Below, piece by piece: positions 772-47,325 of a stretch of 53,301 bases of DNA. Origin of the DNA: Alphaproteobacteria bacterium (GTDB lineage Bacteria; Pseudomonadota; Alphaproteobacteria; JALCBB01); contig JALCBB010000001.1 of the NCBI GenBank assembly GCA_028066985.1, positions 1-53,301 of the forward strand, written 5' to 3'. Each line of letters opens with the position of its first letter. Position 1 is the first letter of the stretch. The translations under genes and the position numbers were made by a program. The notes beneath the pieces were generated by a model. The model had not been told where the DNA came from. It worked only from the letters and a program-made list of their open reading frames with translations, and made no database searches.

Positions 772-801
772 TTGACATCATCCCACTAATTCCCAATAAA
801 T
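772..801 (+). promoter_or_regulatory. Candidate sigma70-type promoter for mraZ/dcw
   Basis: TTGACA at 772-777, 17-18 nt spacer, AATAAA/ATAAAT at 795-801, about 190 nt upstream of mraZ. Motif match only. Confidence 0.35.
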
Positions 802-830
802 ACCACTGAAACCCATGTCCGCCCACTTCG
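781..830 (+). promoter_or_regulatory. Five direct CCCA-type boxes in exact 10-bp phase, candidate MraZ operator
   Basis: Consecutive 10-mers tCCCActaat / tCCCAataaa / taCCActgaa / aCCCAtgtcc / gCCCActtcg overlap the candidate -10. A perfect 10-bp inverted repeat ACCCATGTCC (811-820) / GGACATGGGT (846-855) follows. Confidence 0.4.
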
Positions 831-989
831 TGGCTTTCTCCTCCAGGACATGGGTCCGGCGCCTGGCGAGCCTGATGGCCCTCCTCCTCCCTTAGCCACA
901 GGCATACGCCAGGCGCCGATTCTACAGCCCAAGCCCAAAAAGCCCAGGCACAAGGACAGGCAGGAGAACACAGCAGGGGGTCGCTGAAA

Positions 990-1472
990 GTGCAATCGCT
1001 CTTCCTCGGTACATTCGAGAACCGAATCGACTCCAAAGGTCGCGTGCTCGTGCCCGCCGCCTTCAGGCAGCCCCTCAGTCAGGACGGGCAGCCCGGACTC
1101 GTCTGCTATCCCGATATCAATCAGACCGCGCTCGAAGGCGTCAGTCTGCGCACGCTCAACGACTCCTTCAACGCGCTGCGCGAGCAGTACGAAATGTATT
1201 CGCCCGAATACGAAGCCGTGATGTCCATTCTCAGCGGCGCCGCAAACCTCTCGTGGGACAGCGGCGGACGCGTTCAACTCCCGGAACGGCTCCTCAAAAA
1301 AGCCGGCATCCGCAGCGATGTCGTTTTCGTCGGACTCGGCGACAGGTTCCGTATCTGGGATCCGAACCTCTACCAGAAGCACCTCGGTGTTGTCGCGAAG
1401 ATCACGGAGAAGGGCAACATCACCATCTCGCTCGCTTCCGCGCGGAGAGACGGTCAGGGTAAATCGGAATGA
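990..1472 (+). CDS. mraZ: Transcriptional regulator MraZ
   Basis: 160-aa ORF with N-terminus MQSLFLGTFENRIDSKGRVLVPAAFR typical of MraZ; first gene of the dcw cluster. Confidence 0.9.
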   Translation: MQSLFLGTFENRIDSKGRVLVPAAFRQPLSQDGQPGLVCYPDINQTALEGVSLRTLNDSFNALREQYEMYSPEYEAVMSILSGAANLSWDSGGRVQLPERLLKKAGIRSDVVFVGLGDRFRIWDPNLYQKHLGVVAKITEKGNITISLASARRDGQGKSE

Positions 1473-1816
1473 CGACACCGCCCGCCTCCTCTGTCGTCAC
1501 AGACGCGACCCGCGACAACGGACACCTGCGCGGTCGTCCGTCACTGTCATTGTTAAAGGTCAATGGCGCCTCGCCCACTAATGCCACAGGCCACGCCACG
1601 GGGGACACCTTTCATGGTCGTCCGTCACCGTCATTGTCCTTTAACAATTTTAATTTTTTGTCGGCAGCGCCGACAGGCATCAGTGGGTGCGGCTCGCTTG
1701 AGCCGACACCGTTAACAGTCAATGACACCTCGCCCACTAATGCCAAGGGACGTGCCACGGGGGACGCCTTTCATGGTCGTCCGTCATCGGCGCTCAAAAG
1801 CGGGGCGAAACAATGA
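1469..1816 (+). other. Repeat-derived bridging ORF (115 codons); coding status doubtful
   Basis: ATG 1469 overlaps the mraZ stop (ATGA) and the stop overlaps the rsmH ATG 1813 (ATGA). Nearly the whole ORF is translated repeat DNA (GDTFHGRPSPSLSFNNFNFLSAAPTGISGCGSLEPT). Confidence 0.25.
1519..1790 (+). repeat. Repeat array: X hairpin, distal half-arm, X hairpin, full arm (1640-1744), X hairpin
   Basis: X = GGACACCTTTCATGGTCGTCCGTCACCGTCATTGTCC-like units at 1519-1554, 1600-1639 and 1759-1790. Arm hairpin GTCGGCAGCGCCGAC at 1660-1674; CCCACTAATGCC at 1574-1585 and 1733-1744. Confidence 0.85.
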
Positions 1817-3142: not shown

Positions 3143-5416
3143 ATGCCGAACACGCCTTCGCCGTCTCCCGACTTTCTGCTCGGACGCGACCTCCTCTCGC
3201 ACACCGGCGCGATGCGGCGGCTGCACCGTCACCGCTCGTGCCAGAACTCCGGCGCCGACCCGATGGAGCGCAGAAATCTCAGAATCCTCGTCTGCCTCGT
3301 GCTCGTCTGCTGCGGCTTCGCGACCATCATCTTCAGACTCGGCGCCGTCATGGCTCCGTGGGACAACGACAGCGCGAAACTGCCGCACCCCATCCGCGCA
3401 ATCGCCGACGCCGCCGAAAAACCCGTCATCACCGACAGGCACGGCGAAATCCTCGCAATGGATCTGCCCGCGTATTCGCCGTACGCGCGTCCGAAGGAAA
3501 TGCGGAACCCGCGCCGCGCCGCGCGACTGCTCGCGTCGGCGATTGAGGACGCCAGTCCCGTTGAACTCGCCGCCGCGTTCCAGAACGCCGCCGACAACGA
3601 CGAGCCGTTCGTCTGGGTCGCGCGGTATATTTCGCCCCGCGAGGCGCGCGCCGTGATGAAGCGCGGCGTCGTCGGCGTGGAAATGATGGCGACGAAACGG
3701 CGCAGTCATCCGCTCGGAAGTCTCGCGTCGCATGTCACCGGCTTCACCGACATTGACGGCCGCGGCCTCGCCGGAATGGAACGGCTCGCGTCGGCGCGCG
3801 CGGAAGAGGGCAGGGGATCGGGTGAGGAGATCGCGCCTGTCGCGCTGTCGCTGGATCTGCGCGTTCAGCATGCGCTGGAGGAAGAACTTCACGCCACGAT
3901 GACGAAATTCCAGGGCAAGGGCGCCGCCGGCGTCGTGATGGACGCGAACAGCGGCGAAATTCTCGCTATCGCTTCGCTGCCGAATTTTCATCCCGACCGG
4001 CGCGAGATGCTTAACGAGGAAAATCGTTTTAATCGCGCCACGCTCGGCGTCTACGAGTTCGGCTCCGTTCTCAAGCCGCTCACCTACGCGACCGTGATGG
4101 AGGCGACGCCGCGCGGCGAGTGGAGCGCGCTCTTCGCTTCGCGTTATTCAACTTCGCCGATGCGGATTCCGGGATACACGATCACGGATTATCGTCCGAA
4201 ACATGCGAATGTGAAATTCGCGGAGGGGATGATTCATTCGTCCAATGTGACGACGGCGAAGGTGATGCGCCGCATCGGCGCGCCGTCGCTCAGGGACGGC
4301 TTCCACAGACTCGGCATGGCCGAAATCGCGCCGCTGGAACTCGGCGAGCGCGGACTGCCGCAGATGCCCGCGAAGTGGGGGCCGACTGAATCGGTCACGG
4401 CGTCTTACGGGCACGGGATCGCGGTGTCGCCTGTGCATATTGTTCGCGCCTTCGCGGCGGTCGTGAACGGCGGAGTGCTGCCGTCGCCGACATTGCTTAA
4501 GGGCGGCGCGGCGCCGGGCGCGCGGGTGCTGTCGGCGGAGACTTCGGCGGTGATGCGGCGTTTGTTGCGGCTCGTCGTGCTTGAGGGAACGGGGCGCAAG
4601 GCGGACGCGGACGGGTATCTTGTCGGCGGCAAGACGGGGACTGCCAATCAGGTTTCGCCGAGCGGCGGCTATGACGACAATCTTCGCATCGCGTCTTTTG
4701 TCGCGGCGTTTCCGATGGATGCGCCGCGGTATGTGACTTTTATGATGGTGGAGAATCCGGTGCCGAGCGAGGACAGTTTCGGTTTCGCGACGGGCGGCTG
4801 GGTCGCGGCGAGCGCGACGCGTCTGCTTGTGGCGCGGATCGCGCCGTTGCTTGGCGTGCTGCCGCGTGACAGCGAGGAGTTTGACACGGGCGCCCTTAAT
4901 TTTCTGAACACACCCGATGTTAACGCGGCACCCTTTGTCGTCGTCAACAATGAAACAACGGATTACAGCCCCGGCATCTTGTCTGTCGTCCACAACACCA
5001 TTGACAGCAATGACATTGACAATGAAGCGACCGACTACAAACCCGGCGCCTTGTCTGTCGTCCACAATAAAACAACGGACAACGAAACGGACACCTTGCA
5101 TGGTCGTCCGTCACCGTCGTTGTCTCTTAATAATTTTAATTTTTTGCGGGCAGCGCCCGCGGGCATCAGTGGGCGCGGTTCGCTTGAGCCAACAGCGCGC
5201 CAGTCCGAAAATCCTCTCCCACTAATGCCGAAGGCCGTCCAGGAGGATGCGATAACCGCCGACGCCTCGCCCGTCAATGAGTCCATTGACGCCATTGACG
5301 CGATCATCGCCGACACTTTAAGCGTCCAGCCCGTTGATGAAACCGTCATCCCCGCCGCCGATGAAACGCCCGCGGACATCACCTCGCTCATTCAACTCGT
5401 CCTCAGCGGAACCTGA
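3143..5416 (+). CDS. ftsI: Peptidoglycan D,D-transpeptidase FtsI (PBP3) with a repeat-containing C-terminal extension
   Basis: SxxK (GSVLKP), SxN (HSSNV) and KTG (GGKTGTA) motifs. Start uncertain (internal Met at MERRNLRILV possible). The last ~170 codons include a repeat insertion. Confidence 0.9.
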   Translation: MPNTPSPSPDFLLGRDLLSHTGAMRRLHRHRSCQNSGADPMERRNLRILVCLVLVCCGFATIIFRLGAVMAPWDNDSAKLPHPIRAIADAAEKPVITDRHGEILAMDLPAYSPYARPKEMRNPRRAARLLASAIEDASPVELAAAFQNAADNDEPFVWVARYISPREARAVMKRGVVGVEMMATKRRSHPLGSLASHVTGFTDIDGRGLAGMERLASARAEEGRGSGEEIAPVALSLDLRVQHALEEELHATMTKFQGKGAAGVVMDANSGEILAIASLPNFHPDRREMLNEENRFNRATLGVYEFGSVLKPLTYATVMEATPRGEWSALFASRYSTSPMRIPGYTITDYRPKHANVKFAEGMIHSSNVTTAKVMRRIGAPSLRDGFHRLGMAEIAPLELGERGLPQMPAKWGPTESVTASYGHGIAVSPVHIVRAFAAVVNGGVLPSPTLLKGGAAPGARVLSAETSAVMRRLLRLVVLEGTGRKADADGYLVGGKTGTANQVSPSGGYDDNLRIASFVAAFPMDAPRYVTFMMVENPVPSEDSFGFATGGWVAASATRLLVARIAPLLGVLPRDSEEFDTGALNFLNTPDVNAAPFVVVNNETTDYSPGILSVVHNTIDSNDIDNEATDYKPGALSVVHNKTTDNETDTLHGRPSPSLSLNNFNFLRAAPAGISGRGSLEPTARQSENPLPLMPKAVQEDAITADASPVNESIDAIDAIIADTLSVQPVDETVIPAADETPADITSLIQLVLSGT
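4925..5235 (+). repeat. Repeat element inserted in frame in the ftsI 3' region
   Basis: CCTTTGTCGTC leader; two copies of a ~69-bp direct repeat (CTTGTCTGTCGTCCACAA at 4978-4995 and 5050-5067); X hairpin 5087-5126; AT run; arm hairpin GCGGGCAGCGCCCGC 5146-5160; CCCACTAATGCC 5218-5229. Same layout as 12096-12412. Confidence 0.85.
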
Positions 5417-7036: not shown

Positions 7037-8457
7037 ACTGGCACGGACACGAAATCGCCGCCGCGCTCGGCAGCCAACTCGTCGCCGCGCCCGAAAATCT
7101 CGCCTGGGAAGCCTCGGGCGTCTCAATAGACTCGCGCACCCTCAGACAAAACGAAATCTTCGTCGCCCTCAAAGGGCCGAACTTCAACGGCGGCGACTTC
7201 CTGCCGCAGGTCGCCGATAAACTCGCCGCCGCCGCCATCGCCGAAAATGCTCCGCCCGAAATCGCGCGCAAAATTCCCGTCTTTCAAGTCCGCAGCGGAC
7301 ACCTCGGCCTCGCCGCGCTCGCCGAATACGCCCGCGACACCGGCAACGCCAGCCGCATCGCCGTCACAGGCTCAAACGGCAAAACTTCAATGCGGAAACT
7401 CGTCAGCCTCGCGCTCGGCGGCGCCGGCAGCGTCCACGCGAGCATTCGGAGTTACAACAACAAGGTCGGCGTCTCGCTCACGCTCGCGCAGATGAAACGC
7501 GGCGCGAAATTCGCCGTGCTTGAAGTCGGCACCAACCACCCCGGCGAAATCCGCGAACTCGCCGAACTCGTCAAGCCGCGCCTCGCCGTGCTGACCTCGG
7601 TCGGCAGCGCCCACATCGGACATTTTAATTCGCGCAACGAACTCGCCGCAGAAAAAGCCGCTCTCATCGCGCAACTGGACAGCGAAGGCGTCGCCGTTGT
7701 CCACGAGTCGGCGCGGGAACTCGGCGCCGTCGCCGCCGCCGCCGAAAACGCCGGCGTCAAAATTCATTCCTACGGGCGCGGCGAAAATACAGACGCGAAA
7801 CTCATCTCCGTCACACCCGAAACGCCGACGGAAAGCCAGCCCCTCCCGAACAGCGTCACCGTCACCGCCGATGTGACGGGTCAAAGTGTGCGCTTTCAAC
7901 TCCGCACCCCCGCGCCGCATCACGCCGAACTCGCCATCGGCGCGCTGCTCGTCGCGAAACTCCTCGGCGCCGACACCGCCGCCGCCGCCCAAGACCTGCG
8001 CGAATACCAGCCGCCCGACGGACGCGGCAACATCATTCGCGTCCGCGGCGCGTGGGTCGTTGATGACTCCTATAACGCGAACCCCGAGTCCGTCGCCGCC
8101 GCGCTTTCGCTCGTCGGCGGCGCCAGACTCGCGCCCGGCGCCGAGCGCATAGCCGTCCTCGCCGATATGGGCGAACTCGGCGCGCAGAGCGAAGAACTGC
8201 ACCTCGGCCTCGTGCCGCACATTCTTAACGCGAAGATTACGCGGCTCTTTCTTGTCGGCAGGGAAATCCAGCCCGTGGCGAAAAGTCTCTCCCGCAACCG
8301 CGACATCAAAGTCCGGTGGGCGGAAAGTCTCAAGTCCCTCAACCTCAGCCCCGGCGACATCGCGCGCAATCATAACCTCATTCTCGTCAAAGGATCACGC
8401 GCCGCGAAACTTGACGCCTTTGTCGTCTCCCTCGTCAACACCGCTGCCGAAAAATAA
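7033..8457 (+). CDS. murF: UDP-N-acetylmuramoyl-tripeptide--D-alanyl-D-alanine ligase MurF
   Basis: VTGSNGKTS P-loop and DDSYNANP motif; ATGA overlap with the murE stop. Confidence 0.95.
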   Translation: MNWHGHEIAAALGSQLVAAPENLAWEASGVSIDSRTLRQNEIFVALKGPNFNGGDFLPQVADKLAAAAIAENAPPEIARKIPVFQVRSGHLGLAALAEYARDTGNASRIAVTGSNGKTSMRKLVSLALGGAGSVHASIRSYNNKVGVSLTLAQMKRGAKFAVLEVGTNHPGEIRELAELVKPRLAVLTSVGSAHIGHFNSRNELAAEKAALIAQLDSEGVAVVHESARELGAVAAAAENAGVKIHSYGRGENTDAKLISVTPETPTESQPLPNSVTVTADVTGQSVRFQLRTPAPHHAELAIGALLVAKLLGADTAAAAQDLREYQPPDGRGNIIRVRGAWVVDDSYNANPESVAAALSLVGGARLAPGAERIAVLADMGELGAQSEELHLGLVPHILNAKITRLFLVGREIQPVAKSLSRNRDIKVRWAESLKSLNLSPGDIARNHNLILVKGSRAAKLDAFVVSLVNTAAEK

Positions 8458-10969: not shown

Positions 10970-12090
10970 TGCCGCACCGACTCATTCCGAAACGCGACAA
11001 CAGCGTCTTCTCGCAGTGGTGGTGGAGCGCCGACCTGCCCGTGCTTGCCGCGCTCGCCGCGCTCATCTTCTTCGGGATGCTCCTCTCGTTCAGCGCGACC
11101 CAGCCGCTCGCCGCCAGTCTCGGACAGCAGCACTACGCCCGCGCGATGCCGCATATGGCGTATGCGCTGGTCGCGCTCGCGCTGCTTGTCGCGGTGTCGT
11201 TTCTCAATGCTGACGCGGTTCGGCGCGCGGCGATTATCGCGTGCGCGGCGTGTGTCGTGCTGCTGGTCGCGACGCTTGTGATCGGCACCGAGATCAAGGG
11301 CGCGCGGCGGTGGCTTAATGTGTTCGGGTTTTCGGTGCAGCCGAGCGAGTTTGCGAAGCCGGCTTTCGCGGTCGCGGCGGCGTGGCTGCTGACGGCGGCG
11401 GGCGGGAGGTTTCGGCATCCGGCGTCGCTGGCGGCGTTCGGGCTTTGCGCGCTGCTTTGCGGCTTGCTGCTGCTTCAGCCGGACATCGGGCAGACGGTGA
11501 TTGTCATTTTTATTTTCGGCGCCGAATTTTTTGTCGCCGGGTTTTCGCCTTTTCTTGTGGCGGCGCTGGCTTTGCTTGGCGCGCTGATTTTGCTCGGCGC
11601 GTATCATCTTTTTCCGCATGTGGCGGAGCGGATTAATATTTTTCTGGACCCGGCGTCCGGCGACACTTATCAGGTGGAGCGTTCGCTTGAGGCGTTCGGC
11701 GCCGGCGGGTGGCGCGGTGTCGGGCTGCTGGACGGGCAGATCAAGCAGAAACTTCCGGACCGGCAGTCTGATTTTATTTTCGCTGTTATCGGCGAGGAGA
11801 TGGGTTTCGTTTTCGCGCTGCTTGTGGTTCTGACATTTATGTTTATCGCGGTGCGGGTGCTGTTGAAACTTTCGCGCGAGCCGCGGGCGTTCGCGGCTGT
11901 CGCGGGTGTGGGGCTGCTTACGCAGTTTATCGCGCAGACTTTTGTCAATGTCGGTTCAAGTTTGCAGATGATTCCGACGAAGGGGATGACGCTGCCGTTT
12001 TTGAGTCATGGCGGGTCTTCTTTGCTGGCGATGGGGCTTGGAATGGGCGCGCTCCTGGCACTCCTCAGAAGTCCACATATAACACGATGA
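10969..12090 (+). CDS. ftsW: Peptidoglycan glycosyltransferase FtsW (SEDS family)
   Basis: Refined start ATG 10969 (TGATG overlap with the murD stop). QPSEFAKP, PDRQSDFIF and GMTLPFLSHGGSS motifs. Confidence 0.93.
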   Translation: MPHRLIPKRDNSVFSQWWWSADLPVLAALAALIFFGMLLSFSATQPLAASLGQQHYARAMPHMAYALVALALLVAVSFLNADAVRRAAIIACAACVVLLVATLVIGTEIKGARRWLNVFGFSVQPSEFAKPAFAVAAAWLLTAAGGRFRHPASLAAFGLCALLCGLLLLQPDIGQTVIVIFIFGAEFFVAGFSPFLVAALALLGALILLGAYHLFPHVAERINIFLDPASGDTYQVERSLEAFGAGGWRGVGLLDGQIKQKLPDRQSDFIFAVIGEEMGFVFALLVVLTFMFIAVRVLLKLSREPRAFAAVAGVGLLTQFIAQTFVNVGSSLQMIPTKGMTLPFLSHGGSSLLAMGLGMGALLALLRSPHITR

Positions 12091-12416
12091 CAAACGACTC
12101 TCACACCGCCTTTGTCGTCAATGACACAGATGACACTTTGTCTGTCGTCAACCATGCTTTGACGACCGCGACAACTGCCCCCGCCTCTTTGTCTGTCGTC
12201 AATGCACACAATGACAACGACAATGACAATGGACACCTGCATTGTCGTCCATCACTGTCATTGTCCTTTTTTATTTTTTTGCAGGCAGCGCCTGCGGGCA
12301 TCAGCGGGTGCGGCTCGCTTGAGCCAACACCTTTGCCAGTCCAAGTCGCTCGCTCACTAATGCCAGAGGCGGTGCTTCGGGGGGGCGACTTGCATGGTCG
12401 TCCATTCACATCATGA
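12087..12416 (+). other. Repeat-derived bridging ORF (109 codons); coding status doubtful
   Basis: ATG 12087 overlaps the ftsW stop (ATGA) and the stop overlaps the murG ATG 12413 (ATGA). The arm is read in the same frame as in ftsI (FFIFLQAAPAGISGCGSLEPT). Confidence 0.25.
12096..12412 (+). repeat. Repeat element between ftsW and murG, flanked by the direct repeat ATGACAAA
   Basis: CCTTTGTCGTC leader, CTTTGTCTGTCGTCAA twice, X hairpin 12229-12266, T run, arm hairpin GCAGGCAGCGCCTGC 12281-12295, CTCACTAATGCC 12353-12364, terminal AGAGGCGGTGCTTCG, second X 12382-12410. ATGACAAA at 12087-12094 and 12413-12420. Confidence 0.85.
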
Positions 12417-13555
12417 CAAAGAACCCCCACATCGTCCTCGTCGCCGGCGGAACCGCAGGACATCTCTTCCCCGCGCTCGCCACCGCGCAGACCCTCCAGG
12501 CCCAGGACTACAGCGTCGCCCTCATCTGCGATCACCGCACTCACTCACACCTCCAGTCACAAAACATCACCATCACCGCTCACACCCTCCCCGCCGCCTC
12601 GCCGCGCTCGCGCAACCCCGTCACCATCGCCCTCGCCACCTTCACTCTTATTAACAGCACCCTCAAAGCCGCCAGACTCTTCATCGCCCGCCGACCCCGC
12701 GCCGTCATCACCTTCGGCGGATACACCAGCATCCCCCCCGCCATCGCCGCCATCACCCTCCGCATCCCGACCATCATCCACGAGCAAAATCACACCCTCG
12801 GCCTCGCCAACAAACTCCTCGCCCCCGTCGCCACCACAATCGCCACCTCCTTCCCCGACACCCGCGGACTGCCGAAATACGCCCGCCGCAAAACCACAAC
12901 CACCGGCACTCCCGTCCGCGCCAACATCGCCGCCGTCGCCGGCACTCCATACAAAACACCGCAGGACAGCGGCACCGTTAATGTCCTCGTCATCGGCGGC
13001 AGCCAGGGCGCCGAAACTTTCAATCACCTCATCCCCGAAACTATCGCGCTGCTCCCCGAAAATATCCGCAGCCGCCTCCGCATCACGCAACAAGTGCGCG
13101 GCGACACCGCGTCCGTTCGCCGTCAGTACCAGGACCTCAACATCAACGCCGACCTCGCCGGCTTCTTCACAAACATCAACGAACTCCTCGCCGATACACA
13201 CCTCGTCATCGCGCGCGCCGGCGCATCAACCGTCGCCGAACTCGTCGCCACCGCGCGTCCTGCCATTCTCATTCCGTACCCCCACGCCGCCAACAACCAC
13301 CAGACGCACAACGCGCGAAACTTCGCAAACCTCGGCGGCGGACAAATGCTCGCGCAAGACAAAGCCTCCCCGCGAACCCTCGCCGACACCCTCGCCGAAT
13401 GGCTCGCAAACCCCGACAAACTCATCGCCGCGTCAAACGCGCTTCGTAACCAGTCGCCGAAAAATCCGGAGGCGCGGCTCGCGAACTGCGTCCGCGACAT
13501 CATCGCCCGCAAAAGCGTCGGCCGCCGCCAGACGAAAGAAAGGCTCGCGCTGTGA
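12413..13555 (+). CDS. murG: UDP-N-acetylglucosamine--N-acetylmuramyl-(pentapeptide) pyrophosphoryl-undecaprenol GlcNAc transferase MurG
   Basis: GGTAGHLFPALA N-terminal motif and ARAGASTVAEL. Confidence 0.95.
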   Translation: MTKNPHIVLVAGGTAGHLFPALATAQTLQAQDYSVALICDHRTHSHLQSQNITITAHTLPAASPRSRNPVTIALATFTLINSTLKAARLFIARRPRAVITFGGYTSIPPAIAAITLRIPTIIHEQNHTLGLANKLLAPVATTIATSFPDTRGLPKYARRKTTTTGTPVRANIAAVAGTPYKTPQDSGTVNVLVIGGSQGAETFNHLIPETIALLPENIRSRLRITQQVRGDTASVRRQYQDLNINADLAGFFTNINELLADTHLVIARAGASTVAELVATARPAILIPYPHAANNHQTHNARNFANLGGGQMLAQDKASPRTLADTLAEWLANPDKLIAASNALRNQSPKNPEARLANCVRDIIARKSVGRRQTKERLAL

Positions 13556-21805: not shown

Positions 21806-22654
21806 ATGGACGCCCAGCCGCAGACCACCATCGCCGCGCCCGTCTCGTGGGAGGGCTACGGACTGCATCGCGGACGGCACGGTGTCGCGTCGGTGCTGCC
21901 CGCCGAGGAGAATGTCGGCTACAGAATTCGCAAGTCGGGCGGCGATCCGAAAGACGACATTAAAGTGTCTCCGCTCTATGCGGAGCCGTCGCCGTTGCAG
22001 ACGCAGTTGCGGCGCGGCGGACAGCGCGCGTATACGGTTGAACATTTGTTGTCGGCGTGTTACGGGCTGGGGCTGGACAATGTTGTGATTGAGTTGAGCG
22101 AGGAGGAGCCTCCGATACTTGACGGCAGCGCGTTTTTGTTCGCGCGCGACATTCATGCGGCGGGCGTGCGCGAGCAGGGGGCGCCGCGCCGGGTGCTGGA
22201 GGTTGCGGAGCCTTTTACGCACAGCGAGGGCGCGACGGAGATGCGTTTTCTGCCGTCGTCGGCGCTGGAGATTGTGGTGGAGATTGATTTTGAGGCTTTG
22301 GCTATCGGGTATCAGCGGCTGGAGATTTGTCTGACGCCGGAGCGGTATTTGCGCGAGGTCGCGCCGGCGCGGACTTTTCTGTTGCGGGAGGATTTGCCGT
22401 TTATGCGGCGGTATGGTCTGGGTCGCGGGGGGAATTTGAAGAACGCGATTATTGTGGATGGTGCGCGGGTGCATAGTCAGGAGCCGTTGCGGTTTGCGGA
22501 TGAGTTTGTGCGTCATAAGTTGCTGGATCTTGTGGGGGATCTGGCGTTATTGGGGGCGCCGTTGCGGGGCCGTGTGGAGGTTAACCGGCCTGGTCACAGT
22601 GTTACGATTAATGCGCTCCGCGAGTGGACAACGAAGCACCCCCTTCGGCATTAG
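21806..22654 (+). CDS. lpxC: UDP-3-O-acyl-N-acetylglucosamine deacetylase LpxC
   Basis: VEHLLSACYGLGLDN, PILDGSA and FVRHKLLDLVGDLAL motifs. The last ~9 codons and the TAG stop lie inside a repeat arm. Confidence 0.93.
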   Translation: MDAQPQTTIAAPVSWEGYGLHRGRHGVASVLPAEENVGYRIRKSGGDPKDDIKVSPLYAEPSPLQTQLRRGGQRAYTVEHLLSACYGLGLDNVVIELSEEEPPILDGSAFLFARDIHAAGVREQGAPRRVLEVAEPFTHSEGATEMRFLPSSALEIVVEIDFEALAIGYQRLEICLTPERYLREVAPARTFLLREDLPFMRRYGLGRGGNLKNAIIVDGARVHSQEPLRFADEFVRHKLLDLVGDLALLGAPLRGRVEVNRPGHSVTINALREWTTKHPLRH

Positions 22655-22775
22655 TGGGAGTCTGACTTAGACAGTCACGATAGCCGCTCAAGCGAACCGC
22701 GCCCGCTGATGCCCGCAGGCGCTGCCCGCAGAAAAATTAAAATTTAATTTGACTATTATATATAAGGGGCTGACT
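22626..22775 (-). repeat. Solo arm plus partial AT core, overlapping the lpxC 3' end
   Basis: GGACAACGAAGCAC terminus at 22626, GGCATTAGTGGG 22647-22658, GACTTAGACAGTCACGAT, GCTCAAGCGA, CCCGCTGATGCC 22702-22713, hairpin 22715-22729, then a degenerate core (TTGACTATTATATATAAGGGG). Confidence 0.85.
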
Positions 22776-22937
22776 TTCCCGCCTTTTCGCCTCCCGCTGT
22801 GATTCGGAGAATGATAATGCCTGCCACTGATTGACGGGGGCTTTGATCCGTCACGACAGCAAGCCGTAAAATTATGACTAAATTATGCCAAAAATCACAA
22901 CTCCTTGAAATTGCTGAATTTTTGTGTAAGGGAAACT

Positions 22938-22986
22938 AACAACAAATAATTTTGTGTTAGGGAAAATGCGAATTCCCTTACACAAA
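22938..22986 (-). terminator. Rho-independent terminator of the fic gene
   Basis: On the minus strand: TTTGTGTAAGGGAA / TTCCCTAACACAAA stem (13 of 14 pairs), 8-nt loop, then AUUAUUUGUUGUU. A third copy of the stem sequence at 22921-22934 allows an alternative pairing. Confidence 0.6.
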
Positions 22987-23004
22987 CCATATATCCCGTT
23001 GATT

Positions 23005-24141
23005 TCACTTCATTTCTTTTTTCACGGTCTCAGAGAGTTCGTGAAAAACGAAGATAGAGGCACGGTTCCCGCTTGCGGGTACTCTCTCCTTCACAAACCC
23101 CTCTTCGCACATGACCTTAACAAGTTTGTTGGCAGTGATGCGGGAGCATCCGATGTCCTGCATGAGTCCGGGGGTCGTGAACATTGGTTTCTTAAATATG
23201 AAATCCAGCGCGTAAACGCCGAAAGGCGACTTGACAGCCCGCAAAATGGACTTTTTGCGATCTTCATAAAGAGACACGATCGCGTGAATCTTTTGACAGT
23301 CCCGGTTCGCCTGCACCTTGAGGGCGTCCAGAAAGAACTCGCACCATCCTGTCCAGTCGCCGTCACGCGAAACGCGCAGGAGACCGTCCATATACTCGTC
23401 GCGATGTTCCTCCAGGTATTCGCTGATGTAGAAATACGGCTGCGACAGAATGCGGCCGCCGTCCATCTTCTTGTCATACAGGAAGAGCGGTATCAGGAGG
23501 CGGCCCAGCCTTCCGTTGCCGTCATGAAACGGATGAATCGCCTCAAATTCGGCATGCACCAGAGCCAGTTGTACCAGAGGATCCGGATACGACTGCTCGT
23601 TCATAAAACTCTCCCAGACATCCATCGCCTGCTGCAGATCATCCGGGGCGCACGGGATGAATCTGGCACTGGCAATATCAGAGCCGGGATCGCCTATATA
23701 ATTCTGCGTTGCGCGATACTCGCCGGGAGACTTTCCGCGTCCGCGCACCCCGCTTAACATGATTTTGTGCGTCCTCTTGATGAGGTTGTGAGACAAGGGG
23801 CGTTTTTCGAGCGAACTAGACGCTCTCCCCAGCGCGAAGATGTAATTGATCACTTCGTGCATATTTGCCACAAAGGGATATTCTTCCCTGACATTGCCGG
23901 TCTGCGCTTCAAACAGCAGCACCTCCTCCAGGGTGGTCTGTGTCCCCTCAATTTTGTTTGAGGCGATCGCTTCCAGACGAGTCATGGGGTTGAGCAGAAC
24001 CGCCGGATTCGGAATGCTTCTCAGACCCTCTTCGTACGCCGAGATTGCGCGCATCGCGCCGCTGGTTCTGGGCGCCAGACGCTCCCAGTCCAGATTTTTC
24101 GGCGGAAATTTTCCGCGATGATATTTTACCGGCTTCGCCAT
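23005..24141 (-). CDS. Fic family protein (AMPylase-type Fic domain with N-terminal inhibitory-type motif)
   Basis: Fic motif HPFHDGNGRLGR; N-terminal SNKIEG matching the (S/T)xxxE(G/N) inhibitory helix pattern. Refined start ATG 24141, preceded by GGGAGG 8 nt upstream. Visibly lower GC than its neighbours. Confidence 0.85.
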   Translation of the reverse strand: MAKPVKYHRGKFPPKNLDWERLAPRTSGAMRAISAYEEGLRSIPNPAVLLNPMTRLEAIASNKIEGTQTTLEEVLLFEAQTGNVREEYPFVANMHEVINYIFALGRASSSLEKRPLSHNLIKRTHKIMLSGVRGRGKSPGEYRATQNYIGDPGSDIASARFIPCAPDDLQQAMDVWESFMNEQSYPDPLVQLALVHAEFEAIHPFHDGNGRLGRLLIPLFLYDKKMDGGRILSQPYFYISEYLEEHRDEYMDGLLRVSRDGDWTGWCEFFLDALKVQANRDCQKIHAIVSLYEDRKKSILRAVKSPFGVYALDFIFKKPMFTTPGLMQDIGCSRITANKLVKVMCEEGFVKERVPASGNRASIFVFHELSETVKKEMK

Positions 24142-24155
24142 CAGAACACCTCCCG

Positions 24156-25352
24156 TCAACGCAAATCAGGGTTAGTAAGGGGAACCTCGAACACCTGGCC
24201 CGGAAAGATCAAATCCGGATTCTCAATCTGTCCGCGATTGCGCTCGAAAATCACGCTGTACAAAAAACCCTCCCCCAACTCGCGCCGCGCTATCAACCAC
24301 AAACTGTTCCCACGCTCAACCACCACAACCTTGCCAACACCCACAGCACGACCCTCCGCATCCTCGCCCGTCACACCGCCATGATCAGCCAGAAACTCCT
24401 CGCCATGACGCACAAACGGCGCCTTCAACTTCCACATCACACGACCATTCGCATTCCGCAACTCAACCTCAAGACGATGCTCGCCCTCCGCAATCGGAGC
24501 ATCCGGCACCAGAAGCCATACCCCGTCCGCCGCCACATACGCGTCGCCCACACCGCGACCGTCAATCTGCGCCACAATATGTCCGCCCGCCGGCGCGCGA
24601 CCGCGGATAGTCGCGTTGCCGTCCTCGTCATAATCAACCGACTCAAGACGCAGCGCCCCCACCACCAGTCCGCCCGCCGCGCCCTGCAAAACACGGCGCT
24701 CCGCCCCAGGCTCCTTGCCAAGCAAAAATACCTGGCTCTCATTCGCCGGACGTCCCTCAGGAACATCAATCACCACCAAGTCCTCGCTCAAGCGCGGACG
24801 ATACCCCTCAAGACGCGAACGCAAATCCAGCCGATGCGAACCAGCCTCAAGATCCGTGTCCGGCAGCAACAGCCACTCGCCGCGCCGATCCGCCTGCGCC
24901 GTGCCGACCGCCTCGCCGTCAAGCAAAACCGTGACATCAGAACCGGGCGCCGCGCGTCCGGCAAGAATAGCCGCGCCGCCAGGCTGCACACGCACAACAT
25001 CAAACGACGGCGCCGGACCAGGCGCCTCAGGACGCAACTGCTCCTGCGCGACCTGCTGCGCCTCAATGCTCTGCTGCTCGCTGCGGCGCAGAAAACCCTC
25101 GTCGCCCGCAAGACTCCACCACACCGCCGCCACAAAAGCGAAAATCAGGACAATCACAAGTCCGCGCAGAACGAGAGCCTCGGAAAACGCGGCGCCTTTT
25201 CCGCCGCCGCCGCGCCGTCCTGAACGCCCCGCGCGCGCCTCCTGCGCCGGCGTAGGCTTGACGACAACCGCGGGCGTGACGGCGCGGCCGCGCATGCTCT
25301 CCACCCTGCGGAGCGCAGACGCAAGACTTTGCAAATTCCTGTTTTTAGACAT
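24156..25352 (-). CDS. LysM peptidoglycan-binding domain-containing membrane-anchored protein
   Basis: N-terminal TM segment (LVIVLIFAFVAAVWW) and C-terminal LysM (VVERGNSLWLIARRELGEGFLYSVIFERNRGQIENPDLIFPGQVFEVP). Confidence 0.8.
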   Translation of the reverse strand: MSKNRNLQSLASALRRVESMRGRAVTPAVVVKPTPAQEARAGRSGRRGGGGKGAAFSEALVLRGLVIVLIFAFVAAVWWSLAGDEGFLRRSEQQSIEAQQVAQEQLRPEAPGPAPSFDVVRVQPGGAAILAGRAAPGSDVTVLLDGEAVGTAQADRRGEWLLLPDTDLEAGSHRLDLRSRLEGYRPRLSEDLVVIDVPEGRPANESQVFLLGKEPGAERRVLQGAAGGLVVGALRLESVDYDEDGNATIRGRAPAGGHIVAQIDGRGVGDAYVAADGVWLLVPDAPIAEGEHRLEVELRNANGRVMWKLKAPFVRHGEEFLADHGGVTGEDAEGRAVGVGKVVVVERGNSLWLIARRELGEGFLYSVIFERNRGQIENPDLIFPGQVFEVPLTNPDLR

Positions 25353-26044: not shown

Positions 26045-27259
26045 ATGAAAAAGATTTCGGTCAAAGGCTCCGTGGTTGAGTTGGACGGCGACGAGATGAC
26101 GCGCGTCATCTGGCGCGAAATCCGCGAGAAGTTGATCCTGCCGTTTCTGGATGTGGACCTGGTGTATTTTGATCTGGGTCTGCCTTCGCGCGACAAGACC
26201 TCCGACAAGGTGACGCTGGACGCGGCGGCGGCGATACGCGAGCATCGCGTGGGCGTGAAGTGCGCGACGATCACGCCGAACGCCGAGCGTGTTGAAGAGT
26301 TCGGACTCAAGGAGATGTGGCGCTCGCCGAACGGCACGATCCGCAATTATCTGAACGGCACGGTGTTTCGGGAGGCGATTATCTGTCGGAATGTGCCGCG
26401 TCTTGTTCCGAACTGGACGCGTCCGATTATTGTGGCGCGTCATGCGTATGGCGATCAGTATCGCGCGACGGACATGCGGATCGCGGGGCGCGGTGTTTTG
26501 TCTATGCGCTTTGAGCCTGAGAACGGCGGCGAGGCGACGGAGATGGTGGTGCGCGAGTTTCCCGGAGGCGGCGTGGCGCTGTCTATGTTCAACGAGGACG
26601 AGTCTATGGAGGGCTTTGCGCGCGCGTGTTTCAGTTATGCGCTGGAGCGGGGTGTGGATGTGTATTTTTCCACGAAGGACACGATTTTGAAGGTTTATGA
26701 CGGACATTTCCGCGACTGTTTTCAGGCGGTGTTTGACGGCGAGTTCGCGGAGTTGTTTCGGGAGCGCGGGTTGAAGTACGAGCATCGTCTGATTGACGAC
26801 ATGGTTGCGTCCGCGTTGAAGTGGTCTGGCGGTTATTTGTGGGCGTGCAAGAATTATGATGGAGATGTGCAGTCTGACATGATTGCGCAGGGTTTCGGTT
26901 CTTTGGGTCTGATGACATCGGTTTTGCTGACGCCGGACGGACGGGTTGTTGAGGCGGAGGCGGCGCATGGCACGGTGACGCGGCATTTTCGGATGCATGA
27001 GCGCGGCGAGGCGACGAGCACGAATCCGATGGCGACGATTTTCGCGTGGACGCGGGCGTTGGGGTGGCGCGGACGGTTTGACGGCACTCCGGAGGTTGTG
27101 GAGTTTGCGGGGAAGTTGGAGGGTGTGTGTGTGGGCGCGATAGAGTCCGGGAAGATGACGAAGGATCTGGCTTTGCTGGTGGGTCCTGAGCAGGGCTGGA
27201 TGGAGACCTTCGCGTATCTGGACTACCTTGCCGAGCGTTTAAGCGAAGCCCTTAATTAA
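26045..27259 (+). CDS. icd: NADP-dependent isocitrate dehydrogenase (404-aa homodimeric, eukaryote-like subtype)
   Basis: N-terminus MKKISVKGSVVELDGDEMTRVIWREIREKLILPFLDVDL plus NYDGDVQSD and GTVTRH motifs. Confidence 0.95.
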   Translation: MKKISVKGSVVELDGDEMTRVIWREIREKLILPFLDVDLVYFDLGLPSRDKTSDKVTLDAAAAIREHRVGVKCATITPNAERVEEFGLKEMWRSPNGTIRNYLNGTVFREAIICRNVPRLVPNWTRPIIVARHAYGDQYRATDMRIAGRGVLSMRFEPENGGEATEMVVREFPGGGVALSMFNEDESMEGFARACFSYALERGVDVYFSTKDTILKVYDGHFRDCFQAVFDGEFAELFRERGLKYEHRLIDDMVASALKWSGGYLWACKNYDGDVQSDMIAQGFGSLGLMTSVLLTPDGRVVEAEAAHGTVTRHFRMHERGEATSTNPMATIFAWTRALGWRGRFDGTPEVVEFAGKLEGVCVGAIESGKMTKDLALLVGPEQGWMETFAYLDYLAERLSEALN

Positions 27260-27597
27260 AGGGACAAGCGAAGTGCGACCTTTGGCATTAGTGGGCGTTT
27301 GACTAAGACATTCACGATGTCGGCTCAAGCGAAAACACGCCAACTAATGGGTGCGGGCTAGCCCGCAAAAAAATAAATAATAATTTATTGACTATTTAAG
27401 GGGTCAATTAAATAAATTGCTTTCTTATTAATTGACAAATAATGGAATGGTTATTGTCTATTAAATTAATTCTTTTAATTTTATTTTTTTGCAGGCAGCG
27501 CCTGCGGGCATCAGCGGGTATCGCTCGCTTGAGCCGACATCGTGACTAGTCTTAGTCACACGCCCACTAATGCCAAGGATCAGTCTTCGGAGTCGTC
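27260..27597. mobile_element. Composite mosaic palindromic element (MITE-like), between convergent icd and the RND permease
   Basis: Left arm: AGGGACAAGCGAAG, GGCATTAGTGGG 27284-27295, GACTAAGACATTCACGATG, GCTCAAGCGA, hairpin GCGGGCTAGCCCGC 27353-27366. AT core 27367-27490. Right arm: hairpin GCAGGCAGCGCCTGC 27491-27505, GCTTGAGCC, CCCACTAATGCC 27563-27574. Confidence 0.7.
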
Positions 27598-35025: not shown

Positions 35026-36033
35026 CTATGTTAATTTTGCCAGATCAATTGCCGCGTATGTAAAAATTCCGTCAGCGCCCGCACGGCGCAGACAAAGAGC
35101 CGTCTCGTAAAGCGCGCGCTCCCACTCAAGCGCCCCCGCATCCGCGGCATACCGCAGCATCGCATACTCGCCGCTCACCTGATACGCAAATGTCGGAAGG
35201 CCAAAACCATCCTTGACGCCGCGAATGATGTCCAGATACGGCAAGCCAGGCTTCACCATCAGCATGTCCGCGCCCTCGCCGACATCAAGCGCAGCCTCCC
35301 GCATCGCCTCGCCATAATTCGCCGGGTTCATCTGATAAGTCCGCTTGTCGCCGCGCAAAGAACCCGACGACCCCACCGCGTCCCGAAAAGGTCCGTACAG
35401 ACAACTCGCAAACTTCGCCGCATACGACAAAATCTTCGTGTCAATAAATCCCGCGCCCTCAAGCGCCGAACGAATGACGCCGACCCTGCCGTCCATCATG
35501 TCGGACGGCGCGACAACATCCGCGCCCGCCAGCGCCAGCACAACCGCCTGCTCGGCAAGCAGCGCGTTCGTCTCGTCGTTAAGAATGACGCCCTCGTCGG
35601 ATACGAGTCCGTCGTGTCCGAGGCTGTTGTACGGGTCCAGCGCGACATCGCAGATGACGCCGATTTCGGGCGTGTTCTTTTTCAGCGCGGCGATTGTCCG
35701 GCAGACGAGATTTTCGGGATTGACGGCGAGGCGGCAGCCGGGGTCTTTGTCGGCGTCATCCACCCAGGGGAACAGCGCCACCGCCGATATTTCCAGCGCG
35801 GCGGCTTTTTCGGTCTGCGCGAGCGCTTCTTTCGGGGTGAGCCGTTTCACGCCGGGGAGAGATTTGATTTCCGCCGGCACGCTTTCATTTTCCCGCAGGA
35901 AGATCGGCAGGACGAGATTATGCGGCGAGAGCGTTGTTTCGCTCACGAGGCGCCGTATCCAGGGAGCGGAGCGAAGGCGGCGCATCCGAGTCGCGGGAAA
36001 GCGGGCTGTGCTAGGATTGCGGCTTGTTGTCAT
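35026..36033 (-). CDS. hemB: Porphobilinogen synthase (delta-aminolevulinic acid dehydratase)
   Basis: FPATRMRRLR N-terminal signature, VAPSDMMDGRV and MVKPGLPYLDI active-site regions. Start is ATG 36033 or TTG 36069. Confidence 0.93.
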   Translation of the reverse strand: MTTSRNPSTARFPATRMRRLRSAPWIRRLVSETTLSPHNLVLPIFLRENESVPAEIKSLPGVKRLTPKEALAQTEKAAALEISAVALFPWVDDADKDPGCRLAVNPENLVCRTIAALKKNTPEIGVICDVALDPYNSLGHDGLVSDEGVILNDETNALLAEQAVVLALAGADVVAPSDMMDGRVGVIRSALEGAGFIDTKILSYAAKFASCLYGPFRDAVGSSGSLRGDKRTYQMNPANYGEAMREAALDVGEGADMLMVKPGLPYLDIIRGVKDGFGLPTFAYQVSGEYAMLRYAADAGALEWERALYETALCLRRAGADGIFTYAAIDLAKLT

Positions 36034-36077: not shown

Positions 36078-36509
36078 ATGTCGGTCACGATTCACGAAGA
36101 GGACTTTGATCCGTGGGAGCGGCTGCGTTTGCTGTCGCGGCTCTGGGACGAGGGACGCGCGGGCGCGCTCGCGTCGTTCATCGGTGTCGCGCGCGCGGAC
36201 GAGGCTGACGGCGTGGCGGTTTCGGCGATTTTTCTGGAGCATTACGCGGGGATGACGGAGCGCGTTCTGGGCGAATTGGAGGACGAGGCGGCGCGTCGCT
36301 GGGGGTTGCTGGCGACATGTGTTGAGCATCGTGTCGGACGCGTTGATGTGGGTTGTCCGATAGTTCTGGTTGGTGTGTTGTCGGAGCGGCGGGGCGATGC
36401 TTTTGCGGCTTGTCGTTTTCTTGTGGAGGAGTTGAAGTCCCGCGCGCCGTTCTGGAAGTGCGAGGAGCGGACAGACGGCACCAGACACTGGGTTGAAGGC
36501 AATAATTAA
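36078..36509 (+). CDS. moaE: Molybdopterin synthase catalytic subunit MoaE
   Basis: 143 aa from ATG 36078, with FIGVAR, LEHYAGMTE and PFWKCE-type motifs. Confidence 0.85.
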   Translation: MSVTIHEEDFDPWERLRLLSRLWDEGRAGALASFIGVARADEADGVAVSAIFLEHYAGMTERVLGELEDEAARRWGLLATCVEHRVGRVDVGCPIVLVGVLSERRGDAFAACRFLVEELKSRAPFWKCEERTDGTRHWVEGNN

Positions 36510-36840
36510 AAGACAGACGAAGTGCCACATTCGGCATTAGTGGGCGTCTGACTAAGACAGTCACGATGTTTGCTCAAGCGAGCCGCACCCACTGATGCCC
36601 GCAGGCGCTGCCTGCAAAAAAATAAAATTAAAAAGAAATTAATTTATTTAATAGACACCATTAATTGTCTATTAATGAAAAGGCAATTGATTTAATTGAC
36701 CCCTTAAATAGTCAATAAATTATTATTTATTTTTTGCGGGCTAGCCCGCACCCGTCTGCTGGCATCGTTCGCTTGAGCCGACACCTTAAGAGTCTAAAAT
36801 TCTCGCCCACTAATGCCAGAAGCCGCACTTCGCCTGTCTC
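36510..36840. mobile_element. Composite mosaic palindromic element (archetype), between convergent moaE and ychF
   Basis: Terminal inverted repeats AAGACAGACGAAGTGCC... / ...GCACTTCGCCTGTCTC. GGCATTAGTGGG 36533-36544, CCCACTGATGCC 36588-36599, hairpin 36601-36615, AT core 36616-36735, hairpin GCGGGCTAGCCCGC 36736-36749, CCCACTAATGCC 36806-36817. TAATTAA on both flanks. Confidence 0.75.
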
Positions 36841-36848
36841 TTAATTAA

Positions 36849-36876
36849 TGCCAGAGGCGGTGCTTCGTTGTCTCTG
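36849..36876. repeat. Isolated element terminus fragment
   Basis: TGCCAGAGGCGGTGCTTCGTTGTCTCTG repeats the last ~28 nt of an arm, bracketed by TAATTAA (36842-36848) and TTAATTA (36877-36883). Confidence 0.6.
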
Positions 36877-36880
36877 TTAA

Positions 36881-37990
36881 TTAGACATTGAAGCGGAAGT
36901 TCATCACATCACCATCGCAAACAACATAATCACGCCCCTCATGTCTCAATAAACCACGCTCCCTCGCGCCAGCCTCGCCGCCACACTCCGCAAAGTCCGC
37001 AAACGAAACCGTCTCCGCCCGAATAAATCCGCGCTCCATATCACTGTGAATACACCCCGCCGCACCAGGAGCCAGCACACCGCCAACCACCGTCCACGCC
37101 CGCGTCTCCTTCGGACCCGTCGTGAAAAATGTTATCAGCCCAAGACGACCATAACCCTCCCGAACCAGTCGCTCCAGACCGGACGCCTCCAGACCCGCGT
37201 CGCTCAAAAACTCCCGACGCTCGTCCGCATCGCCTAAACAACTCACCTCCGACTCAAACGCCGCCGACAACATCACAAATCCAAAATCACACTCGCCAGC
37301 CCGCGACCTCACACCCTCCGAATACTCATTGCCGCTCACCACATCCCCCTCGCCGACATTCGCCACATATACACAGTCCTTCGCCGTCAGCAGATTCAAA
37401 CCGCGCCACGCCCCCAGAACCTCCGCCGACTCCGACTCGCCCGGCGCCGCCGTACGCGCCGCCCGTCCCGCCTCCAAAGCGCCGCGCGCCATATCAATCA
37501 CGCGCATCCGCAAAACCGCTTCCTCGTCTCCGCCGCGCACACGCTTCTCCAATCCCGACGCCTGACGCTCCAGCGACTCCAGGTCGGCCAGCATCAGTTC
37601 CGTCTCCACGAGTTCCGCGTCGCGCAGCGGATCCACCTCGCCCTCCGTATGACTCACCTCGCCGCCGAAACAACGCAAAACATGCAGTATCAAACCCGCC
37701 TCCCGCACCTGCCCCAGAAAACGATTGCCCAGCCCCTCGCCCGTGCTTGCGCCGCGCACGAGTCCGGCGATGTCGACGACCTCCAGGGTCGCCGGCGTCA
37801 CCTTTTCGGAGCGCGACATCTCCGCGAGCCGCGACAGCCGCGCGTCAGGCACCGCGACCCGTCCGAGGTTCGGATCAATCGTGCAGAACGCGAAGTTCGC
37901 CACACGCGCCTGCTCGCCGCTCACCAATGCATTAAATAATGTGGACTTCCCCACATTCGGCAAACCGACAATCCCGCACGAAAACCCCAT
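36881..37990 (-). CDS. ychF: Redox-regulated ribosome-binding ATPase YchF
   Basis: MGFSCGIVGLPNVGKSTLFNAL P-loop N-terminus and a C-terminal TGS-like domain. Confidence 0.97.
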   Translation of the reverse strand: MGFSCGIVGLPNVGKSTLFNALVSGEQARVANFAFCTIDPNLGRVAVPDARLSRLAEMSRSEKVTPATLEVVDIAGLVRGASTGEGLGNRFLGQVREAGLILHVLRCFGGEVSHTEGEVDPLRDAELVETELMLADLESLERQASGLEKRVRGGDEEAVLRMRVIDMARGALEAGRAARTAAPGESESAEVLGAWRGLNLLTAKDCVYVANVGEGDVVSGNEYSEGVRSRAGECDFGFVMLSAAFESEVSCLGDADERREFLSDAGLEASGLERLVREGYGRLGLITFFTTGPKETRAWTVVGGVLAPGAAGCIHSDMERGFIRAETVSFADFAECGGEAGARERGLLRHEGRDYVVCDGDVMNFRFNV

Positions 37991-40321: not shown

Positions 40322-40414
40322 GGGGGTATTGTGGCTGGAGTGGGGGTTTTGTGGAGTTTAGGGGTGGATTTTGGCGAGGTCAAGTGCGACTTTCGGACAA
40401 TTTAGGGACAATTT

Positions 40415-40454
40415 AGAGACAGACGAAGAGCCGCCCTTGGCATTAGTGGGCGCC
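40415..40454. repeat. Isolated element terminus fragment
   Basis: AGAGACAGACGAAGAGCCGCCCTTGGCATTAGTGGGCGCC is the outer ~40 nt of an arm, followed by TTAATTAA (40456-40463) and then a full element. Confidence 0.6.
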
Positions 40455-40463
40455 TTTAATTAA

Positions 40464-40794
40464 GGGACAACGAAGCACGGCCTCTGGCATTAGTGGGAGA
40501 TTGACCAAGACATTCACAATAGTCGCTCAAGCGAGCGATGCCAGCAGATGGGTGCGGGCTAGCCCGCAAAAAAAATTAAAAATTAATTTTGACTATTAAT
40601 GGGGTCAATTAAATAAATTGTCTTTTCATTAATAGACAATTAATGGTGTCTATTAAATAAATTAATTTCTTTTTAATTTTATTTTTTTGCAGGCAGCGCC
40701 TGCGGGCATTAGTGGGCGCGGTTCGCTTGAGCGGCTGTTGTGAATGTCTTGGTCAAACTCCCACTAATGCCAAAGATCGCACTTCGTTTGTCTC
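40464..40794. mobile_element. Composite mosaic palindromic element (inverted relative to 36510-36840), between the prs start and the GNAT stop
   Basis: GGGACAACGAAG end, GGCATTAGTGGG 40486-40497, hairpin GCGGGCTAGCCCGC 40554-40567, AT core 40568-40688, hairpin GCAGGCAGCGCCTGC 40689-40703, CCCACTAATGCC 40760-40771, end CACTTCGTTTGTCTC. Confidence 0.75.
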
Positions 40795-40795
40795 T

Positions 40796-47306: not shown

Positions 47307-47325
47307 CGCGCGCGCCCTTTCATCA

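Follow-up and report, generated by a model that had tools for sequence, protein, structure and literature searches.

The lpxC gene and its 3' end

The window analysed here is a stretch of 53,301 nt (positions 1–53,301, forward strand, of contig JALCBB010000001.1 in assembly GCA_028066985.1) from an alphaproteobacterium whose source records include a sponge metagenome and whose lineage is placed near the Rhodospirillales/Kiloniellales by the names of its FtsI homologues. An open reading frame (ORF) at 21806..22654 on the plus strand is lpxC, which encodes a UDP-3-O-acyl-GlcNAc deacetylase of 282 aa. Residues 6–273 match positions 1–265 of the 268 in the Pfam LpxC model (PF03331; E=2.1e-80, 270.5 bits against a cut-off of 27), and LpxC entries in the PDB were matched at 1.8e-45. 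At Trp274, directly after this domain, the reading frame enters one copy of a repeat of ~125 nt, here called an arm, that is dispersed through the window, and it ends at a TAG in the 5' strand of the 12 bp conserved stem of the arm. An initial annotation, made from the sequence alone, had reported the start of the repeat (GGACAACGAAGCACccccttcGGCATTAGTGGGAG, from 22626) and the position of the stop codon (TAG, 22652–22654, within the box GGCATTAGTGGG, 22647–22658), and both were confirmed, as was the presence in the window of the two copies used for comparison, at 40464 and 47326. It had also placed the last nine codons (WTTKHPLRH) in repeat DNA. This holds for residues 275–282 (TTKHPLRH) and the TAG. 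Trp274 is best read as native because the orthologue from a sister species also has Trp at this position, and eight codons and the stop, not nine, are therefore repeat-derived.

The junction codon, TGG (22625..22627; this and the other features of the arm are on the plus strand), encodes the last residue in common with the sister orthologue in protein and DNA alignments, and its GG coincides with the beginning of the arm (GGACA), where the profile alignment starts. The outer segment of the arm (22626..22646) consists of GGACAACGAAGCAC and seven variable bases, here ccccttc, and encodes T275–R281. In alignments of 20–31 arms it belongs to the short 'GACAACGAAGCAC' variant, and it is 73–77% identical to the outer segments of the copies at 40486 and 49776. 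The codons for R281 and H282 straddle the boundary between this segment and the conserved box GGCATTAGTGGGAG (22647..22660), which forms the 5' strand of the stem and holds the TAG. In the minimum free energy fold, this box pairs with box' (CCCGCTGATGCC, 22702..22713), the 3' strand of the stem. Between the two lie a first inner hairpin (TGACT...AGTCA, 22663..22677) and a second, the GCTCAAGCGA motif (22686..22695), which occupies invariant alignment columns and is degraded in the lpxC copy. A terminal GC hairpin (GCAGGCGCTGCCCGC, 22715..22729), with one A-C mismatch in the lpxC copy, is followed by an A-rich run. This run and a partial AT-rich core (TTGACTATTA...AAGGGG) take up 22730..22769, where comparison with longer, composite elements places the end of the element.

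A profile built from 12 other arms, with the lpxC copy excluded, matched 22624–22718 (E=1e-25), the homology beginning GTGGACAACG, and a 20-arm profile matched 22624–22748 (E=6e-35). The lpxC copy is an ordinary member of the family, with a mean identity to the other arms of 72.7% compared with a family mean of 71.4%; the nearest copy is 82% identical and its make-up is mosaic. It is a solo arm with a fragment of core. Self-BLAST of 22740–23010 found no other copy in the window, and no second inverted arm follows. Beyond ~22770 the DNA is unique and lower in GC content, and a fic gene follows on the opposite strand. The stretch 22770–24160 has a GC content of ~0.53 and includes the Fic-domain gene (23005..24159, minus strand) and a 14 nt inverted repeat (TTTGTGTAAGGGAA / TTCCCTTACACAAA) at 22921–22986; it may be an acquired island or an operator.

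Contigs assembled from short reads break inside the lpxC arm, one of them 44 nt past the lpxC stop, and such breaks might point to a chimera at a repeat. However, the identical LpxC protein is encoded on 11 contigs of independent assemblies from several samples, including one of 2.27 Mb, and an assembly artefact is thereby excluded. With the match to the independent profile also in hand, the probability that the junction reflects chance similarity or a chimera is negligible.

The only close orthologue is the LpxC of the sister species (P0002, 281 aa, 82% identity); the next homologues share 47% identity. When the two proteins were aligned, as the initial annotation had proposed, they were collinear to INALR[E/T]W and diverged exactly where the homology to arms starts. 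P0002 continues from ...VEVNRPGHSSTINALRTW with AGGEPPQAG and a stop, and the window LpxC from ...GHSVTINALREW with TTKHPLRH and a stop. At the DNA level, the two part immediately after the common TGG. A tail resembling WTTKHPLRH in an orthologue from a repeat-free genome would have spoken against a repeat origin, and no homologue has one. Strain variants at 99% identity all end WT[T/A]KHPLRH. Neither the lpxC locus of the sister nor 21.7 kb of its dcw cluster yielded a significant full-length arm in nhmmer searches with arm profiles; the equivalent of the latter stretch in the window contains ~7 arms. As the sister has an unrelated tail and no significant full-length arm, and the strain variants keep the arm-encoded tail, we infer from these sequences that the TTKHPLRH tail is lineage-specific and repeat-derived.

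The opposite direction of transfer, with TTKHPLRH native to lpxC and the end of the gene captured and spread by the repeat family, is highly improbable. Homology to the family continues for ~95 nt past the stop codon, the outer segment occurs in several subfamilies beside unrelated genes, the lpxC copy is an average, mosaic one, and the sister LpxC does not have the tail.

The best arm-profile match in the sister (E=0.66) is a hairpin whose loop holds the lpxC TGA. This hairpin (GCAGGC-TGA-GCCTGC, then ACCCAT; 6835–6858 of sister contig L001) weakly resembles the hairpin of the type B inner arm end (see below) in reverse. Further downstream, at 7003–7045 and just before a contig break, lies a sequence resembling the inner end of an arm (CCCACTTAAGCC..CGCGGGCACTGCCCGC). 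It is ~185 nt past the stop and is oriented like the lpxC arm; in local alignment, this arm-like inner hairpin scores above all 300 dinucleotide shuffles.

The change in LpxC is a swap of the tail, not a truncation, because only eight codons are replaced and the protein is 282 aa long compared with 281 aa in the sister. The zinc ligands and catalytic residues E79, H80, T190, H237, D241, D245 and H264 fall in invariant columns of a 92-sequence alignment, and correspond to E78, H79, T191, H238, D242, D246 and H265 of Escherichia coli LpxC. Eighteen residues follow the catalytic His264, compared with 19 in the sister. A tail of 18 residues is the joint minimum among 92 monofunctional homologues (median 36), and is matched by three natural LpxCs. 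In an AlphaFold model (predicted local distance difference test score 96.2), a C-terminal helix extends over residues 264–277 and is followed by coil. Of the arm-encoded residues, T275–K277 finish the last helical turn and 278–282 form a low-confidence tail. The catalytic fold is predicted to be left intact, and the change is probably near-neutral for LpxC.

Architecture and affinities of the arm family

The arm was defined, with an orientation, by extracting and aligning all copies in the window. At its outer end there may be a prefix, AATTAA/AATTAG, and inward from this come GRGACA(R)RCGAAGYGC, seven bases that vary, the box GGCATTAGTGGGMG, the small TGACT..AGTCA hairpin, the invariant GCTCAAGCGA hairpin, one of two inner ends and an A-run. 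Inner end type A has an inverted box, CCCACTGATGCC, and the hairpin GCAGGCGCTGCCTGC, and type B has GATGCCAGCAGATGGGTG and the hairpin GCGGGCTAGCCCGC. Outer segments fall into several subfamilies that differ in length and sequence. Composite elements of ~290–340 bp, in which an AT-rich core (TTGACTATTTAAGGGGTCAATTAAAT...) is flanked by two arms in inverted orientation, are found at 36508–36845, 40462–40795, 47325–47617 and 49752–50085; their ~125 nt inverted arms end GRGACA.

At up to two mismatches, 31 occurrences of the box were counted in the window, compared with 0.17 expected from shuffles. The 20-arm profile returned 26 matches, of which 22 are near-full arms, and a further 13 arms were found in 19 kb of flanking genome taken from the 2.27-Mb contig. 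Across the ~72 kb sampled, the density is about one arm per 1.5–2.4 kb.

A structure with the 12 bp box/box' stem enclosing the two inner hairpins, followed by the terminal hairpin, was specified and tested on 20 copies. Its positions are 86% paired, compared with 31–45% when the partners are slid. The box/box' stem (helix 1) is 91% paired, and the first inner hairpin (helix 2) is 66% paired with double changes at three pairs; the second inner hairpin is helix 3. The terminal hairpin (helix 4) is 99% paired and has compensatory changes, one pair being AU in 10 copies, GC in five and CG in four, and another CG in 16 and UA in four.

Read in the orientation found at lpxC, arms are rich in early stops. 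There is a TAG at +5 in nearly all copies, a TGA at +16 in most and a TAR near +21 in some. In the lpxC arm, all three frames are stopped within ~25 nt of the start of the box, and the majority of the other copies close two frames or more over such a distance. In the reverse orientation there is only 0–1 stop-free frame.

[quoted passage not shown] The lpxC copy is a solo arm without an inverted partner. An 8 bp direct repeat that may be a target-site duplication flanks an insert between ftsW and murG (described below), and no such duplication was seen at lpxC, at the mraZ-rsmH insert or at the canonical composites.

Repetitive extragenic palindromic (REP) units, and the bacterial interspersed mosaic elements (BIMEs) that they build, are found for the most part directly downstream of stop codons; the units alternate in orientation, with conserved linkers between them. 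Arms resemble BIMEs in that they are extragenic, lie near stop codons and form mosaic arrays of alternating orientation with conserved linkers, their hairpins being kept by compensatory changes. Unlike REPs, which are palindromes of 20–40 nt with a GTAG-type head, arms are multi-stem units of ~100 nt, ~3–4 times longer, that carry the GGCATTAGTGGG box and have no such head, and the 8 bp direct repeat at one arm-containing insert is not a REP feature. No RAYT gene turned up in the ~72 kb sampled, in which no dedicated RAYT test was made.

Searches of wider collections did not place the family. Rfam, at gathering and at permissive thresholds, returned nothing but a tRNA and no family matching the arm. 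A composite element used as a blastn query matched none of the PLSDB plasmids, and a 26-base arm pattern had 0 matches in JGI metagenomes. A pattern joining outer segment and box was run over genome contigs, and among the matches listed there was one locus, in a Paludibacteraceae coding region. With 18 specified bases, ~17 chance matches are expected for this pattern, and the locus was dismissed as a chance match. The arms are described here as an uncharacterised MITE/BIME-like family and are filed in no named one.

Arms at other gene ends and in inserts

The distance from gene end to arm edge was judged on genes validated by Pfam. Two genes end well inside an arm, lpxC (-30 nt) and the gene for AcrB (-14 nt). 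Those for DUF805 and HIBDH (both -3), Icd and GNAT (both 0), HemB (+3), a molybdopterin oxidoreductase (+4) and YchF (+8) end at or near the edge, and four others lie at +14 to +61. The DUF805 TGA is completed by the GA of the GAGACA of the arm, and YchF keeps its conserved ...FRFNV end. The lpxC junction is the extreme of a local continuum of gene-end overlaps. At arm-abutting genes TAA or TAG stops account for 9/13, compared with 9/23 for the comparison set, a trend given without formal statistics. The stops at arm edges suggest that the elements prefer TAA/TTAA-like sites as targets, or else that stops are supplied by the arms.

In AcrB, the last ~4 codons and the TGA (27580–27594, minus strand) lie inside the outer segment of the arm at 27471–27594, with the stop at -8 from the box. 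Stops at arm edges are found at 27257–27259 (Icd), 35026–35028 (HemB), 36881–36883 (YchF), 40796–40798 (GNAT), 42218–42220 (DUF805) and 50086–50088 (HIBDH), often within the AATTAA/AATTAG prefix.

The initial annotation had also raised the possibility that other ORFs terminate at the TAG of the box. Such ORFs were looked for, and among ~35 arms lpxC is the sole real gene that does so. An ORF at 786..1478 on the minus strand also ends at a box-like TAG. As it matches no Pfam family and runs antisense to mraZ, it was not accepted as a gene.

Abutting stops bear on how the lpxC junction could have arisen. The gene could once have stopped right at the arm edge, as those for Icd, HIBDH and GNAT do, and a point mutation of that stop would have extended the ORF to the TAG of the box. 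Stops at arm edges are common, and in arms of the short variant that TAG is in frame with a stop immediately preceding GGGACA. However, Trp274 would then have to come from the GGG of the arm, and the sister, with no arm there, has the same Trp and nine more codons. There is also no trace of the AATTAA/TAG prefix upstream of the junction (CTCCGCGAG), and we regard stop loss as very unlikely.

The position of the stop in a conserved stem raises a different possibility, that arms are selected RNA or DNA structures and that the placing of the stop in a stem, or the new tail, tunes the level of LpxC. The conserved, compensated pairing described above, the many gene stops 0–8 nt from arm edges and the fixation of the arm-encoded tail across strains fit such a role. 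REPs near stop codons have been reported to affect translation, and RNase III and ribosome-stalling scenarios have been raised for repeats in Coxiella (PMC5896051). Against this, lpxC alone among real genes ends at the TAG of the box, the RNA fold around the lpxC stop exceeds shuffles in stability by a narrow margin only (z=-1.95), the hairpins of the lpxC copy are slightly degraded, and the strains are too alike (99%) for fixation to indicate selection. An adaptive 3' module is unlikely on this balance. No intrinsic terminator was found after lpxC.

In the gene for FtsI/PBP3 (3143..5416, 757 aa), a core cell-division gene of the dcw cluster, the reading frame stays open across an entire reversed arm (5126–5241, minus orientation), which encodes a peptide of ~42 residues (...SLSLNNFNFLRAAPAGISGRGSLEPTARQSENPLPLMPKAVQ...). 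The sister FtsI (693 aa) has the same extreme C-terminus, SLI[QR]LVL..GT, without the ~42 arm-encoded residues; other FtsI proteins are 572–590 aa long. The arm peptide has only eight weak matches among 1.84 billion representative proteins, and for this reason pervasive exonisation of the kind described for Rickettsia palindromic elements (RPEs) was rejected.

The clearest sign that the elements transpose is found between ftsW and murG. These genes overlap in the sister, and in the window they are held apart by a 326 bp arm-containing insert (12087–12420, arm at 12267–12383) that is flanked by an 8 bp direct repeat, ATGACAAA. Removal of the insert restores an ATGA stop/start overlap. A start for murG inside the arm was considered and rejected, as murG begins at a native ATG (12413).

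The mraZ-rsmH spacer is 340 nt long (1473–1812), compared with 17 nt in the sister, and holds one partial and one full arm in tandem. The insert begins right after the mraZ TGA and includes a second type of outer segment (GACGGACGACCATGAAAGG...); no clear duplication was seen. Solo fragments of outer segment are found in tandem just outside full arms, at 40395–40460 and 36846–36873; examples are GGACAATTTAG GGACAATTTAG AGACAGACGAAGAGC..GGCATTAGTGGGCGCC and, on the minus strand, GAGACAACGAAGCACCGCCTCTGGCATTA followed without a gap by ATTAAGAGACA. A simple nesting of insertions does not account for these fragments, because there is no matching remainder on the far side. A further short repeat (CTTTGTCTGTCGTC / CAATGACA) is present at 4975–5070, in the FtsI tail (as a repeated G(A/I)LSVVHN), and at 12100–12260, between ftsW and murG; the mosaic would seem to have in it one more module.

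Two observations were made just outside the window. On one contig (L007, 20308–21662), a DarT-like gene is followed by an ADP-ribosylglycohydrolase gene, forming a DarTG-like toxin-antitoxin pair, and on another (L010, 5795–5880) an arm lies within ~15 nt of the 3' end of a tRNA gene.

Origin of the fusion and its meaning

In all likelihood, a lineage-specific event joined the 3' end of lpxC to a solo arm, a unit of an intergenic repeat that is abundant, structured and mosaic. After the split from the sister species, a native tail of ~9 codons, the stop codon and the downstream spacer would have been lost, and codon 274 (TGG) would have been joined to the outer end of the arm through the GG microhomology. 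Translation would then run on for eight arm-encoded codons to the TAG of the conserved box. The initial annotation took this to be an insertion that replaced the native 3' end. The tail has been replaced, as the difference from the sister indicates, and the data are equally compatible with a deletion. Direct insertion into the 3' coding end is a plausible route, if a tentative one, and is consistent with an arm terminus, GRGACA, that is essentially complete at lpxC; other arms also have no AATTAA prefix. A deletion that joined the gene to a pre-existing downstream arm is possible, and is consistent with the arm-like inner end, in the same orientation, downstream of lpxC in the sister.

Several points weigh against the fusion as set out here. 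Neither a target-site duplication nor a displaced remnant of the native tail was found downstream of the lpxC arm, and the event therefore cannot be reconstructed. The ~72 kb sampled contained no transposase, and no autonomous element was identified there. With one close orthologue only, the ancestral tail is not polarised by an outgroup, and the tail of the sister may also have been remodelled, its stop lying in the loop of an arm-like hairpin. The suggested neutrality of the change for LpxC comes from a structural model only.

The kind of event proposed is already documented for other repeats. In enterobacteria, ERIC/RU-1 units have been fused past an enzyme domain such that the normal stop was lost and the unit supplied the C-terminal residues and a new stop (PMC2759123). 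Examples are the Erwinia carotovora amidase ECA3499 and Tdh (ECA0168), with 13–35 residues supplied (Delihas 2007, PMC2759123). As at lpxC, a small structured intergenic repeat provides the end of an enzyme. However, the two repeats have no sequence relationship, the lpxC arm gives only eight residues, and the element at lpxC, an arm with several stems, belongs to a mosaic family whose host is an alphaproteobacterium that is uncultured and sponge-associated.

In Coxiella burnetii, QMITE1 and QMITE2 overlap the C-terminal ends of functional genes by 1–50 bp (Wachter et al. 2018, PMC5896051). One in-frame 3' insertion gives EnhC its C-terminal 33 aa, and a stop codon beside a stable stem was discussed as possibly affecting expression (PMC5896051). 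QMITEs are a different family in a different phylum and make up ~1% of the Coxiella genome, in contrast to arms roughly every 1.5–2.4 kb in the ~72 kb sampled here. RPEs, palindromic repeats of ~100–150 bp in an alphaproteobacterium, enter coding sequences without destroying the protein (summarised in PMC10969869), and the in-frame arm in FtsI resembles them in this respect. RPEs insert in frame often, whereas in-frame exonisation of arms looks rare, with FtsI the one clear case. Moreover, an arm in the lpxC orientation terminates the reading frame, and the host genome is GC-rich and lies outside the Rickettsiales.

A more far-reaching reading is that the arms belong to an undescribed family of mobile, structured modules whose docking is specific to stop codons or to the 3' ends of genes, and that they were co-opted at lpxC and ftsI. 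It would explain the stops 0–8 nt from arm edges, the AATTAA/AATTAG prefix and the early stops in up to three frames, and we consider it improbable. In E. coli, FtsH sets the level of LpxC by way of the protein's C-terminal tail. If the docking reading were true, the stem-buried stop and the new tail would tune the abundance of LpxC, which catalyses the committed step of lipid A synthesis, and would functionally replace the FtsH/Lon degron logic of other proteobacteria.

The lpxC fusion is in itself of moderate-to-low interest; somewhat more attaches to the repeat family and to the copy that FtsI carries in frame. For annotation, the C-termini and stop codons of genes in the source genome should be treated with caution, as they are often repeat-derived and short-read contigs break exactly there. 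A very dense repeat family remodels the ends of core and normally invariant genes (lpxC, ftsI and acrB) in this organism, apparently without destroying them. The lpxC locus is a clean natural example of selfish or structural repeats making new protein termini, and the LpxC tail, with its stop in a stem, provides a tractable test case of whether such fusions are neutral or regulatory.

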